Below, piece after piece: positions 3,498-9,754 of a stretch of DNA of 64,000 bases (the first letter of the stretch is position 1; every line of letters starts with the position of its first letter). The notes under the pieces were generated by a model. That model saw only the letters and a program-made list of their open reading frames with translations, was not told the origin of the DNA and did no database searches. The stretch is from positions 27,263-91,262 of the IMG/VR virus record IMGVR_UViG_3300011480_000001; one strand, 5' to 3'. Source of the DNA: a virus (taxonomy: Duplodnaviria > Caudoviricetes). The position numbers and the translations under genes are program-made.

Positions 3498-4235
3498 CTA
3501 CCCCTCATTAAACTTTACCCACTTACTATCTTGACAAGGAATCCAACCTTCCTTAAATTTCTTAAGTATAGTAAAAATTGAACTTCTAGGGACTTCATCA
3601 CAATACAACTCATTATAGAGTTTAGTGAATCTACGCTCACCCAGTTTATCAGAGTTAATCCAAACTTCATAAAATACTTGTGCATTCTTCCAAAGCAATG
3701 TTAGATAAGGTCTTGCAACTACCTTAGAAGTTTCCCAAGGAGCAAGATTCTTATTCCTAGCGGCTTTTGACATATTCTTTCTTGCGGTTTCTGATCTTTT
3801 TGCGCCAAGATTAGCCATACGGGTACGCTCTATTGACTCAGGAGATTGTTTCCTGCCTTTGCTTGCAGCTCCAGTTTTCAGCTTAGCTTCTTCTGTATGC
3901 TTCTTACCGAAGAAAGGATTGCCCGCGCCCTTATTAGCTGTTGAGGCTACTATTCGGGCCTTTTCAAATTCTCTTGAAGTAGTCTTATAGCTATTACTCA
4001 TAATCCAATACGCTCTTTGGTATTGTTTACAAGACTTATTAGACTTCCACAAAAGTTTATGGGCAAGGAAATGTTCCCTCAAAGTGAGTAACACTAGGTT
4101 TTCTTTCTTGTTTGATCCACCCATACTTCTCAAGACAATATGGTGCTTCTCAGTATAAAAATTTAATTTATTCTTGTTCAGACCTCTAGCCTGCCTTGAG
4201 TAAACAAGTTTGTTGTAAAGATCTAAGTAATTCAA
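3498..4235 (-). CDS. Free-standing HNH homing endonuclease with NUMOD3 repeats
   Basis: EKHHIVLRSMGGSN...NLVLLTLREHFLAH HNH core; NPFFGKKHTEEAK, GRKQSPES and GAKRSET NUMOD3-like repeats. Confidence 0.88.
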   Translation of the reverse strand: MNYLDLYNKLVYSRQARGLNKNKLNFYTEKHHIVLRSMGGSNKKENLVLLTLREHFLAHKLLWKSNKSCKQYQRAYWIMSNSYKTTSREFEKARIVASTANKGAGNPFFGKKHTEEAKLKTGAASKGRKQSPESIERTRMANLGAKRSETARKNMSKAARNKNLAPWETSKVVARPYLTLLWKNAQVFYEVWINSDKLGERRFTKLYNELYCDEVPRSSIFTILKKFKEGWIPCQDSKWVKFNEG

Positions 4236-6888: not shown

Positions 6889-6963
6889 TGGAGGCAAAGT
6901 TCGGAGTCAAACCGAAGTCACGGCGTTACAAAGGCCGGGTAATGATCACTATACGACAATGCC
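6889..6963 (-). tRNA. Degenerate tRNA-Thr(TGT)
   Basis: Cloverleaf ending in encoded CCA; T-arm TTCGG-TTTGACT-CCGAA; anticodon arm CGGC-CTTTGTAAC-GCCG with a C.C mismatch; two U.U mismatches in the acceptor stem. Confidence 0.65.
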
Positions 6964-6971
6964 AAAACTAT

Positions 6972-7385
6972 TTAATCTTTCTTGCTACCATCCAACATCG
7001 TCAAGCTAAACCTCTTGACGGGAACTTCAGGAACAACTTCTTCCTTTTCTCCCTCTTCGTTGTTATCTTCAGCTAACTCTTTCTTAAGAGTATAGCGAGA
7101 TTTCTCTTCGTTCAACACAGCAGCTTGAGTCGTAACAGCCCTCTCGCAAATCCATCGGGCGATTTGAAGTTGGTCTTTGTCTTGAACAATTGGATCACCA
7201 TTCTCGTCTTGCTTTGCATCAAGAACAGCATCAATGATTTCCATTGCTTTAGGAACACGAGCAAGCAGTTCGTTAGCTAATTCTTTTAGCTTTGAACGAG
7301 GAATACGCTTGCCTCTGATCCCTTTTTGATTTCGGTTCTGAGGGTTTGAACTTAATCCTTGTTTGTTTCCGACTGGTGCTGCCAT
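6972..7385 (-). CDS. terS: Terminase small subunit (probable)
   Basis: MAAPVGNKQGLSSNPQNRN N-terminus typical of TerS; located upstream of terL; GAGG RBS. Confidence 0.65.
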   Translation of the reverse strand: MAAPVGNKQGLSSNPQNRNQKGIRGKRIPRSKLKELANELLARVPKAMEIIDAVLDAKQDENGDPIVQDKDQLQIARWICERAVTTQAAVLNEEKSRYTLKKELAEDNNEEGEKEEVVPEVPVKRFSLTMLDGSKKD

Positions 7386-7451
7386 GAAAAATACCTCTTA
7401 TTATTCTTTACTTTCTTTGTAAAAACTACTCAGAGAATAGGCTTTAGAAAG

Positions 7452-7570
7452 AAGTCTATATGAGAGGAGAAAGACACATATAGACTTGGAAGCGGCTATA
7501 CGAAGGAGGAGAGACAACGTACAGCCAATAGGCGTTCAACTACAAACAAGGAGAGAATCTGTAGTTGAAC
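7452..7570 (-). repeat. Three tandem 9-11 bp hairpins with UCUCCU-containing loops
   Basis: Stems 7452-7462/7477-7487, 7494-7502/7518-7526 and 7534-7544/7560-7570. G.U pairs form only on the minus strand. Confidence 0.85.
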
Positions 7571-7601
7571 ATTCACGCATTACTAAGGAGGATTTTACTT
7601 T

Positions 7602-7895
7602 TTAGCGTGAAGAAGACACTCTAATGAGACCATTATTTTCATACTCAGTTTCGTCGTATTCGTGACTGAATAATTTATAATACACTTCATCAGAAAACTG
7701 TTCAGTTTCAGCTAAGCTGTGTGCAACCATATTAGCTCGACCAACATTAGGAAACTCACCAAGATTTTCGCTAGATGTTGACTGAGACGATTGTGTGTAT
7801 TTCGTCACTACATAACGAGTAACTGGTCTTACTTTATACTCAACCTTGGCGTAAGGCTTTTCTTCTGTTACATTTAAATCTTCAATTTCAATCAT
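7602..7895 (-). CDS. Hypothetical protein
   Basis: 97 aa ORF with GGAG RBS. Confidence 0.7.
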   Translation of the reverse strand: MIEIEDLNVTEEKPYAKVEYKVRPVTRYVVTKYTQSSQSTSSENLGEFPNVGRANMVAHSLAETEQFSDEVYYKLFSHEYDETEYENNGLIRVSSSR

Positions 7896-7992
7896 ATTTA
7901 CTTAACTCCACAGAGTTTTTAAATTTAAAATTACAATCCGCAGATTGTGTTATTAGTTTGTAGTCTTTCCCACTGTCATTTAAAACTTAGGT

Positions 7993-8177
7993 ATTACAGA
8001 GGAAGTCGCACCGTTCTGTTAGCTACGCCCTCAAGGGGACTGGGTCCAGAACATATAGCATTTTAAGCTATATCCGCTTCCAACAGAGAGTGTATTCCTC
8101 TGTCCGTCCAATGACTAATTAAAGTCCAGTGCCGCCTAATACACAACGGTGCTCACTGCTGGTCTTACGTCTGTAAT
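7993..8177 (-). ncRNA. Candidate structured ncRNA (about 185 nt)
   Basis: Nested stems ATTACAGA/TCTGTAAT, GCACCGTT/AACGGTGC, ACTGG/CCAGT, ACAGAG/CTCTGT and ATATAGC/GCTATAT; no ORF. Confidence 0.55.
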
Positions 8178-8180
8178 GTT

Positions 8181-8269
8181 TGGCAACCCGTAGAAGTAAT
8201 GATCTCCGTGACGATCCATCCTCATGTTTTACGTCAAAGGCTTAGAAGACCTCTTGAGGGGTACGGGTT
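8181..8269 (-). ncRNA. Atypical tRNA-like RNA with an Arg(TCT) anticodon loop and no D-arm
   Basis: Acceptor AACCCGTA/TACGGGTT followed by GCCA; arm AGAGGT-CTTCTAA-GCCTTT; 4-bp T-like stem GGAG-ATCATTA-CTTC. Confidence 0.65.
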
Positions 8270-8274
8270 ATATG

Positions 8275-8349
8275 TGGTGGGACCAGCAGAAATTGCATCT
8301 GCATATCTCGTCTTATGAGGACGGTTCATTACTTTTATGATATAGTCCC
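8275..8349 (-). tRNA. tRNA with CAT anticodon (Ile2 or Met)
   Basis: GGGACTA/TGGTCCC acceptor with ACCA; D-arm TCAT/ATGA; anticodon loop CTCATAA; T-arm GCAGA-TGCAATT-TCTGC. Confidence 0.85.
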
Positions 8350-8354
8350 GTAAA

Positions 8355-8764
8355 TTCATTGCACCCTAAAGTCATAAAATCAGGAGTTAAGGAATTACCT
8401 ACATTTCTGTATTCTTTAGGACGACTTTACCAGAATGTGACGTATTCTACTCACTTACCGAAGGTCAAAATAAGCTTTCAAACAGAGCGTCTTCACAGAT
8501 AGCTCATTCTGATTTTTATAATTGCCTTTCGGCCAACAGAATTCCTAGCGTCTGCTAGGCTACGGTGTAATTGGTGTAAACCTACACTATCTCTCACCCT
8601 GTGAATTCGTAGAACTACTAAATCGTATCCGCTCTCGTAGTCGTAGCTCGGATTTAGCATCCCTGTTGGAAGGACTGGTCTACTCGCCAACGTATTACGC
8701 CGCGTATGAACGTAATATCCGTGTTGCTCTTTTAAATTCCCGAAGCCTCTTCGGCTTTCCTGTG
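8355..8764 (-). ncRNA. Candidate large structured ncRNA (about 410 nt)
   Basis: Directly behind a consensus promoter; many hairpins; the only ORF (8493-8771) starts inside the -10 box. Confidence 0.55.
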
Positions 8765-8769
8765 CTGAC

Positions 8770-8797
8770 ATTATACACTATTTATTTATATTGTCAA
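8770..8797 (-). promoter_or_regulatory. Consensus sigma70 promoter for the RNA cluster
   Basis: TTGACA-N16-TATAAT. Confidence 0.85.
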
Positions 8798-9006
8798 CTA
8801 TTTTCGTTATAATCTATCAAATTTAGTGCGTATTCCGTAATATCTCCAAACTGATAGGTCTTTACATCAATATATTCAGAGTTATCTGAAATGAAGATAC
8901 ATGCCGTACACATATCTTCTTCCACGTACATACCTTCAAACTCATCATTGCTTTTATATCGAACCATCCCTGTTAAGGGCGTGTCGCAACATTTACATCT
9001 AGACAT
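8794..9006 (-). CDS. Small zinc-finger protein
   Basis: CKCC...CTAC; 70 aa. Confidence 0.65.
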   Translation of the reverse strand: MSRCKCCDTPLTGMVRYKSNDEFEGMYVEEDMCTACIFISDNSEYIDVKTYQFGDITEYALNLIDYNENS

Positions 9007-9754
9007 TTCTGATAAATCCTATTCCTTTTTCATATTGATTTGGGTCTTTACCAGATTTACTACGATTGCATGTTGGACACAAAAGCTGTAAATTATCAGG
9101 CCAGTGACTTCCACCCTTACACAAAGGCATTATGTGGTCAATATGATAACCTGTGTTATCAAACAAGGCATCACAATAGACACACTGACCTTCTTGATTC
9201 ATGTAAAGGAGTTGAATGTCCGCATTACTAAAATGGCCATCAGCTTCTAATTCACGCTTACGTCTAAGCTGGCTGTAAATCTTAGCCCAAGGTTTGTAAT
9301 TTTCTTTGTTTTCTTTTACACATGCAACGCAAAGTCCTGTCTCAGTAGATCGTTTAGAAAGGTGATTGTTTTTACATGGTAATTTAGTATCATAAAAAGG
9401 CTCATCGAGTTCCTTAGCTATCTCTTTGGTTCTTGGTAAAATATCCAAATCTTCTGAACCAAAGGTGTAGTTCGTCAACAAACCTGTCTTTTCTGTATCT
9501 GAAACTTCTGATAAAGTTTCTCTAATAAACCGCAGAGCTTCTTTTGCTTTCTCTTTCTTGGCAACTCTATTTTCAGCCCGTTCTTCCCATTGGAATGAGT
9601 TTTCAGCTTTATGTTCTTCAAGACATTCACAACATTTGTTTGTAGAAACATACCTATCTGAAATATGACCTTTAATACATGCTTCACCAGTAAAATAGAA
9701 AACTAACCCAAGCTCTTTGGCCTCTTTTCTTGTGATTATTTCCACAATTACCAA
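8999..9754 (-). CDS. HNH endonuclease with two N-terminal Zn-binding repeats
   Basis: CVYC...HIDHIMPLCKGGSHWPDNLQLLCPTCNRSK; duplicated (K)EAKEL...C..(G/N)H.S.R...C..C module. Confidence 0.88.
   Translation of the reverse strand: MVIVEIITRKEAKELGLVFYFTGEACIKGHISDRYVSTNKCCECLEEHKAENSFQWEERAENRVAKKEKAKEALRFIRETLSEVSDTEKTGLLTNYTFGSEDLDILPRTKEIAKELDEPFYDTKLPCKNNHLSKRSTETGLCVACVKENKENYKPWAKIYSQLRRKRELEADGHFSNADIQLLYMNQEGQCVYCDALFDNTGYHIDHIMPLCKGGSHWPDNLQLLCPTCNRSKSGKDPNQYEKGIGFIRNV

Follow-up and report, generated by a model that had tools for sequence, protein, structure and literature searches.

A conserved array of RNA hairpins with CU-rich loops upstream of the large terminase gene in a clade of uncultured phages

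Why would a tailed phage keep a row of hairpins that have their loop core in common and stems that are unrelated to each other? The question is raised by a gap of 216 nt that separates two minus-strand ORFs, one of 97 aa (7602-7895) and one of 137 aa (6972-7385), in the 64,000-nt stretch of DNA analysed here (the window). The window is part of an IMG/VR virus record of 91,262 bp. The terminal repeat of this record (104 nt) is an assembly overlap, as are the terminal repeats of 77-127 nt of the genomes compared, so the physical genome ends are not readable from these records. The gap holds a real and uncatalogued RNA family that most likely regulates translation, a function that we infer from its anatomy and context.

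The clade to which this phage belongs is uncultured, has genomes of 85-93 kb and counts Felix O1 and Pakpunavirus-type phages among its distant relatives. The closest cultured matches of the large terminase (terL) are those of Pakpunavirus-type Pseudomonas phages (~52%), and the DNA polymerase is 50-58% identical to those of Pseudomonas and Acinetobacter phages; the closest cultured relatives by these two genes infect Pseudomonas and Acinetobacter. Among cultured phages there was no tblastn match to the 137-aa protein and no DNA match to the array, and the Acinetobacter phage BS46 has the same gene order without the array.

Anatomy and surroundings of the array

The main features of the region follow in RNA order.

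8770-8797, minus strand: perfect sigma-70 consensus promoter (TTGACA-16-TATAAT), 1.15 kb upstream of the array
8278-8349, minus strand: tRNA-like gene between promoter and array (Rfam tRNA, 50.3 bits)
7586-7615, minus strand: conserved 5' edge of the module, a block nearly identical in the relative L002
7573-7610, minus strand: hairpin H0, with a 6-bp stem UCACGC/GCGUGA (7573-7578/7605-7610) and a 26-nt loop
7584-7593, minus strand: motif AUCCUCCUUA in the H0 loop, which includes CCUCCUUA, the 3' end of 16S rRNA
7534-7570, minus strand: first CU-loop hairpin (arms 7534-7547/7557-7570), with eleven Watson-Crick pairs plus a wobble extension and the loop core UCUCUCCUU at 7548-7556
7494-7526, minus strand: second CU-loop hairpin (arms 7494-7502/7518-7526), with nine pairs, one of them G.U, and the loop UUGUCUCUCCUCCUU at 7503-7517
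7452-7487, minus strand: third CU-loop hairpin (hairpin C of the family; arms 7452-7462/7477-7487), with eleven pairs and the loop UGUCUUUCUCCUCU at 7463-7476
7411-7451, minus strand: long imperfect hairpin D, CUUUCUAAAG...CAAAGAAAG, which closes the array immediately behind the third CU-loop hairpin
6972-7385, minus strand: 137-aa gene, with a weak Shine-Dalgarno sequence (SD) AAGAGGU at 7393-7399
6892-6963, minus strand: second tRNA-like gene, just after the 137-aa gene (Rfam tRNA, 38.3 bits)

The module (7411-7616, minus strand) is composed of a large-loop hairpin with the motif that includes the 16S end, then three hairpins whose loops have the UCUCCU core and, last, the long hairpin D. 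An earlier note on this DNA, in which the three CU-loop hairpins were numbered 3, 2 and 1 in the order listed above, had described them as consecutive, with near-identical loops on unrelated stems, and they are placed exactly as claimed. They are 33-37 nt long (H0 has 38 nt) and share the loop core. TRF found no tandem repeat in the array, and the direct repeats are confined to the loop regions, from which we conclude that the stems are truly unrelated. An array of the type III antitoxin kind (ToxI-like) was rejected on the same grounds, since it would need tandem direct repeats. The fourth motif that had been proposed does include the 16S 3' end but, instead of standing free, it is located inside the loop of a fourth hairpin, H0.

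The minus strand of 7386-7601 folds with -58.9 kcal/mol, versus -33.2 +/- 3.8 for shuffled sequences (z -6.75; 0 of 200 shuffles as good). When the whole 64-kb window was scanned for hairpins with CU-rich CUCC loops, 14 matches appeared; the three of the array are among the longest-stemmed and form the only adjacent group. The pairing is also sensitive to the strand, as had been pointed out from the G.U pairs: that of the second hairpin becomes a C.A mismatch when the plus strand is read, and this hairpin is absent from the fold of that strand. No intrinsic terminator was found by a scan of 7386-7616, where the loops are 9-26 nt long and have no U run behind them. Within the array GGAGA is found at 7466, 7508 and 7550, a spacing of 42 nt. 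This is merely the usual unit length, the units of relatives being spaced 32-118 nt apart, and helical phasing of the boxes was discarded given that the 42-bp period is lost there.

Public-run contigs helped to delimit the module. One of them, from an RNA library, matches 7392-7597 at 95% identity and has unlike flanks. Another variant, which differs from it in hairpin C/D and in the flanks, is present in the same runs; the depth of these contigs reflects a strain mixture, and they were used for the borders only. Contigs of 95% identity come from the transcriptome of a 'synthetic metagenome' (runs X18 and X19), a hint that a relative may be in culture. The borders were set at ~7392 and ~7616, beyond which relatives diverge or join other DNA. 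In a close relative 7616 is joined to 8353, and the piece 7617-8352, with an ORF and a tRNA-like gene, is missing. This piece may be an inserted cassette, or the 97-aa ORF (7602-7895, minus strand) may be no gene at all; this ORF, for which no family was matched, shares 15 nt with the 5' edge of the module. Two homing-endonuclease genes (both minus strand) were noted in the surroundings. One, at 3498-4235 and of a LAGLIDADG/HNH-type PHROG, separates the portal gene from terL; the other, at 8999-9754 and of the endonuclease VII/HNH type, precedes the tRNA/ncRNA unit. The relative L013 has a duplicated N-terminal fragment of the 137-aa gene ~0.9 kb upstream, which suggests insertion events in the region.

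The sigma-70 site at 8770-8797 is probably the promoter of the tRNA/ncRNA unit. In nine genomes there are only 3-9 sites per genome that match the consensus at 11/12 positions or better, and in six of the nine such sites are found on the same strand 169-1199 nt upstream of the array. The perfect consensus suggests expression by the host polymerase, of the type seen in stable RNAs, and not a late promoter. ARAGORN made no call for either of the tRNA-like genes (8278-8349 and 6892-6963), which may be unusual tRNAs. In L002 a tRNA-Thr occupies the place of 6892-6963 and a tRNA-Arg adjoins the 5' edge of the module. A tRNA adjoins this edge in L007 as well, and in a relative from the public run X15 (3' end of the tRNA at 7616). 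In two other loci (L028 and L029) the tRNA lies between hairpin D and the 137-aa gene, where its processing would separate the array from the 137-aa mRNA.

A second conserved non-coding element was observed at 8604-8725 (minus strand), just downstream of the promoter, in an ORF-poor stretch (7900-8770). It has homologs in the genomes G014 (L082:11545-11740) and G005 (L064:17995-18200), with no shared ORF, and RNAalifold gave compensatory changes at 13 of its 38 pairs from three sequences only. No match to this element was found in Rfam, ROOL and GOLLD included.

Downstream of the array, on the same strand, the 137-aa gene is followed by the large terminase, portal and head protease genes. The array had been described as standing upstream of terS. 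It does precede the 137-aa gene, but this is terS by position only, the protein having no PHROG, Pfam or PDB profile match. Its AF2 model consists of two long helices (pLDDT 70), in which Foldseek recognised no more than a two-helix hairpin. When 5.8 billion proteins were searched, the family proved to have at least 335 metagenomic members, all of them "hypothetical" and many on contigs of ~88-93 kb. Given this number of relatives of the linked protein on contigs of ~90 kb, the RNA family appears to be large.

Conservation and covariation in related viruses

Relatives were gathered via terL and via a four-sequence alignment of the 137-aa protein family; a seven-sequence alignment of the same family was too divergent for the locus scan, and by the 137-aa protein alone no close relatives were found. 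The same design, with 2-6 CU-loop hairpins and behind them a long hairpin that co-varies, is present in more than 20 related viral contigs, and each of nine complete genomes has one clear array. In 19 of the 27 loci found through the 137-aa protein, the 600 nt before its gene contain 2-5 CU-loop hairpins, and such hairpins number 49 on the sense strand versus 4 on the antisense strand. In the seemingly negative loci the array is located further upstream, at 1-3.6 kb (G011, G012, G014 and G015). In every case the 137-aa gene and the terL block lie downstream of the array and run in the same direction. From the array to the ATG of the 137-aa gene there are 68-470 nt where the two are adjacent, and 68 nt to 3.6 kb overall. 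The kilobases in these four genomes, together with the tRNA found in between in L028 and L029, indicate that the array is not tied to the downstream start codon.

The array of L002, whose terL is 91% identical, can be aligned with that of the window, and here the loops are kept and the stems have been rebuilt by compensatory changes. The counterpart of 7534-7570 has had its stem replaced in this manner and retains UUCUCCUU in the loop, the counterpart of 7494-7526 has a conserved loop on a changed stem, and H0 is also present. More distant genomes are alignable only at the loops and a few linker words. From 5' to 3' the family is made up of a single-stranded CU motif, hairpin A (GCUG...CAGC), a linker ACUUAAAGA and hairpins B, C and D, with CCUCUCCU as the loop of hairpin C and the long hairpin D closed by UUUCU.A/U.AGAAA.

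MAFFT was unable to align hairpins A-C structurally, and the pairing was counted by custom scripts instead. At hairpin C, 15 loci have 15 different stems; the arms are 35% identical among loci and pair at 100% within a locus versus 46% across loci. All 15 loops contain CUCC, and 11 of them CUCUCC. Over 36 loops, the core UCUCCU was found in 25 and CUCUCC in 21. In hairpin D, 10 of the 15 pairs show compensatory changes (RNAalifold; 16 relatives). Loop sequence and stem pairing are therefore kept and the stem sequence is free, which bears out the selection on the loops that had been argued from the window. The earlier note had set loop conservation in relatives as a test, and both L002 and the 15 loci at hairpin C gave the expected pattern of kept loops on co-varying stems.

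Inside the array stems, G.U exceeds A.C by 42:17 on the gene-sense strand, while control pseudo-hairpins in coding DNA give 418:406. This excess and the covariation of the stems indicate that the selected structure is an RNA on the gene-sense strand. We consider it very probable that 7411-7616 is a selected RNA structure on the minus strand. The comparison of sequences describes the family as a previously uncatalogued structured non-coding RNA of ~200 nt that belongs to an uncultured phage clade.

The same two observations argue against a cruciform, against a protein site on double-stranded DNA and against a plus-strand CsrA sponge. The exact 42-bp spacing in the window (four helical turns) and the position just upstream of the small gene preceding terL would suit a DNA packaging site, in which GGAGA/TCTCC boxes bind the small terminase as in lambda cosB or SPP1 pac. 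Neither stem covariation nor a strand-specific G.U excess is predicted by double-stranded DNA recognition, however, and with a spacing of 32-118 nt in relatives, an array that may be as far as 3.6 kb from the gene and a 137-aa gene without terminase match, we regard such a site as very unlikely. A plus-strand RNA with GGA loops acting as a CsrA/RsmA sponge, the alternative offered in the earlier note, is less probable still. The reverse complement of every loop does carry GGA in a hairpin loop, but this strand is antisense to all the neighbours (genes, tRNAs and consensus promoter), the G.U bias points the opposite way, the second hairpin is lost in the plus-strand fold, and none of CsrB, CsrC, RsmX, RsmY and RsmZ was matched when both strands were searched with Rfam at permissive E values, up to 10 for the window and up to 1 for 13 relatives.

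One further member of the family was seen at L084:3240-4000 (GCA_052274385.1). It has four CU-loop hairpins, two single-stranded CCUCC motifs, one of which is CCUCCUUA, and a structured leader of ~400 nt behind a TTGACA promoter. The contig is filed under Pseudomonas sp. and looks like a binned phage contig; its G+C content of 39% makes the Pseudomonas label doubtful.

Ribosome-binding sites and possible modes of action

The loop core UCUCC(U) is the complement of the commonest ribosome-binding site (RBS) of the clade, the consensus of which is UAAGGAGAA, with an A after GGAG in ~55-60% of cases. UCUCCU had been noted as complementary to AGGAGA, an RBS said to be common here, and this stands: AGGAGA was found in 29 of the 198 ORF upstream regions of this genome and GGAGAA in 26 of 198, GGAGG being rare. 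The RBSs of the structural block, downstream of the array, contain GGAGA in 1 of 34 genes, versus 49 of 164 among the other genes of this genome (p 4e-4). The figures for G005 are 1/30 and 33/133, and those pooled over nine related genomes 41/279 (15%) and 340/1301 (26%); taken singly, the contrast is non-significant in seven of the nine, six of which go in the predicted direction while G014 lacks it. Late genes of T4 avoid GGAG, and the scarcity of GGAGA in the structural block of this genome (G000) and of G005 recalls that. The idea that early or host translation could be shut off at the late switch thus keeps in its favour that the structural genes here are nearly devoid of GGAGA, but the contrast is weak in most relatives and the promoter is a sigma-70 consensus, more in keeping with constitutive or early expression than with a late switch.

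The best reading, which we hold tentatively, is that of a trans-acting sRNA with several anti-SD seeds. As predicted from the fold, the RNA of ~200 nt displays one CCUCCUUA and three UCUCCU-core motifs in hairpin loops, followed by the long closing hairpin. It would probably be made within a tRNA-containing transcript that starts at the consensus sigma-70 promoter, and then be cut out by tRNA and RNA processing enzymes. By analogy with the cuckoo/alpha-r14 sRNAs discussed below, each exposed loop would be an anti-Shine-Dalgarno seed, redundant with the others, for pairing in trans with AGGAGA-type RBSs, and this pairing would block translation initiation and perhaps also trigger decay. Such a mechanism fits the anatomy and has, in an analogous RNA, a tested precedent in NfeR1 (PMC10746234). 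A strongly expressed RNA of this kind would also strike the phage's own genes, since the loop core pairs with their commonest RBS. Two counterpoints are that the best duplexes predicted in nine genomes share no orthologous target beyond close relatives, and that the invariant CUCUCC differs from the 16S anti-SD (CCUCC); its strict conservation could equally mark a protein-binding site.

A more ambitious version, which we find distinctly improbable, makes this RNA a phage-made, RNA-only counterpart of T4 RegB that silences GGAGA-type non-structural and host mRNAs and spares the packaging and structural genes. A search for RegB (PF10715) gave no match in the phage, the control genomes being equally silent. 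If this version were true, global translational reprogramming by a virulent phage would become testable with a single 200-nt RNA.

Instead of pairing with mRNAs, the pyrimidine-rich loops of the minus-strand RNA could titrate a CU-binding protein, as a sponge or decoy for ribosomal protein S1, a cold-shock-domain protein, a KH-domain protein (Era) or a phage or defence protein. S1, Csp and KH proteins may have a preference for such a CU motif, and Era is a KH-domain protein that binds the 16S 3' end. The CUCUCC(U) core is almost invariant across divergent genomes, when a bare anti-SD needs only CUCC or CCUCC. Several copies per RNA, their display on stable stems and a strong promoter of the stable-RNA type correspond to the layout of known sponges such as CsrB, and no conserved mRNA target emerged, the best predicted loop-RBS duplexes in nine genomes containing no recurrent orthologous target beyond close relatives. 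On the other hand, no candidate binding protein is conserved beside the array, the sole conserved neighbour being the 137-aa helical protein, without match to an RNA-binding fold, and we consider a sponge rather unlikely. The same low probability is given to an element acting in cis, with CU motifs that would mask the SDs of packaging and structural genes on read-through transcripts, or that would contribute to the processing or stability of the tRNA operon. The constant position and orientation with respect to the 137-aa gene and the terL block are in its favour, and in the MFE fold of the window AAAAUCCUC, part of the fourth motif, is base-paired to GAGGUAUUUU in the SD region of the 137-aa gene. 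The long hairpin D may resemble an RNase III-type processing site, and short CT-rich motifs, which are reported in a preprint to insulate downstream genes from read-through (bioRxiv 10.1101/086108), count on the same side. Against a cis element, the array is separated from the gene by a tRNA (L028, L029) or by 1-3.6 kb (G011, G012, G014, G015), its distance to the ATG varies even where the two are adjacent (68-470 nt), and the long-range SD pairing of the window is not recoverable in divergent relatives. Moreover, a single SD would call for no more than one anti-SD, and the arrays keep 3-6.

Comparison with known systems

No Rfam family fits the array. The only match, a weak one, was to ar14, and there was none in 13 relatives or in the ORF-free stretch upstream. 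The literature searched yielded no account of a phage RNA with several CU-loop hairpins, and to our knowledge a function has been established for only a few of the regulatory RNAs of virulent phages.

Abundant small RNAs in or beside tRNA clusters, with unexplained function, have been described in phages, namely the band C/D RNAs of T4 and sRNA1 and sRNA2 of PAK_P3 (PMC4933390). PAK_P3 belongs to the phage group with the closest cultured terL (~52%), but its sRNAs have ~100 nt, are characterised by a T-loop-like 11-mer and not by arrays of CU loops, and are transcribed late (PMC4933390). The likeness to CsrB, RsmY and RsmZ is in the many hairpins that repeat one short loop motif, carried in their case by an abundantly transcribed RNA, whereas the motif on the gene-sense strand is here CUCC, not GGA, and none of their models matches. 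Among the Firmicutes, RsaE/RoxS and LhrC1-5 of Listeria have exposed CU-rich loop motifs that pair with the SD regions of several mRNAs. The exposed UCCC loop motifs of RNAIII of S. aureus do likewise, according to the summary given in PMC4615179. Motif, architecture and organisms differ from those of the phage array, with no similarity in sequence or model.

The closest parallel in design is the cuckoo/alpha-r14 family of Alphaproteobacteria (RSs0680/CcsR1-4, SmelC397 and NfeR1; Rfam RF02344). These sRNAs have 2-4 adjacent hairpins with an identical anti-SD loop motif on highly variable stems, the changes in the stems are mainly compensatory, and outside the loops sequence conservation is low (PMC4615179). 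In reporter assays, the three motifs of NfeR1 redundantly silence mRNAs at the RBS (PMC10746234). The phage array follows the same plan: the hairpins of the window (33-38 nt) fall in the cuckoo range of 24-50 nt, their stems vary and a loop core is shared, and the adjacent hairpins number 2-4 there and 2-6 here. However, the loop motif is CCUCCUCCC there and (C)CUCUCCU here; CCUCCUCCC occurs in none of the loops of the window and in a single hairpin of one relative (L009). The match to the RF02344 model (7418-7533, minus strand) has 21.3 bits and an E value of 0.28, for a gathering threshold of 58.8 bits. The cuckoo RNAs are encoded in alphaproteobacterial chromosomes behind a DUF1127 gene; the phage array lies in a virulent-type phage, among tRNA genes and downstream of a sigma-70 consensus promoter, and has in addition the conserved closing hairpin D and the conserved ACUUAAAGA linker. 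As motif, model score and context all fail, we take the phage array for an analogue and not a member of the cuckoo family, and the likeness is probably convergent.

The anatomy of this conserved RNA module, with several exposed anti-SD-like loops, points to a mechanism that can be tested. Were its partner a protein, the RNA would represent a new type of sponge, and either way it is a compact part that could serve for controlling translation. Should it act instead on ribosome-binding sites, the phage would have in it a means to reprogram translation, and the cuckoo design would have been reinvented independently.
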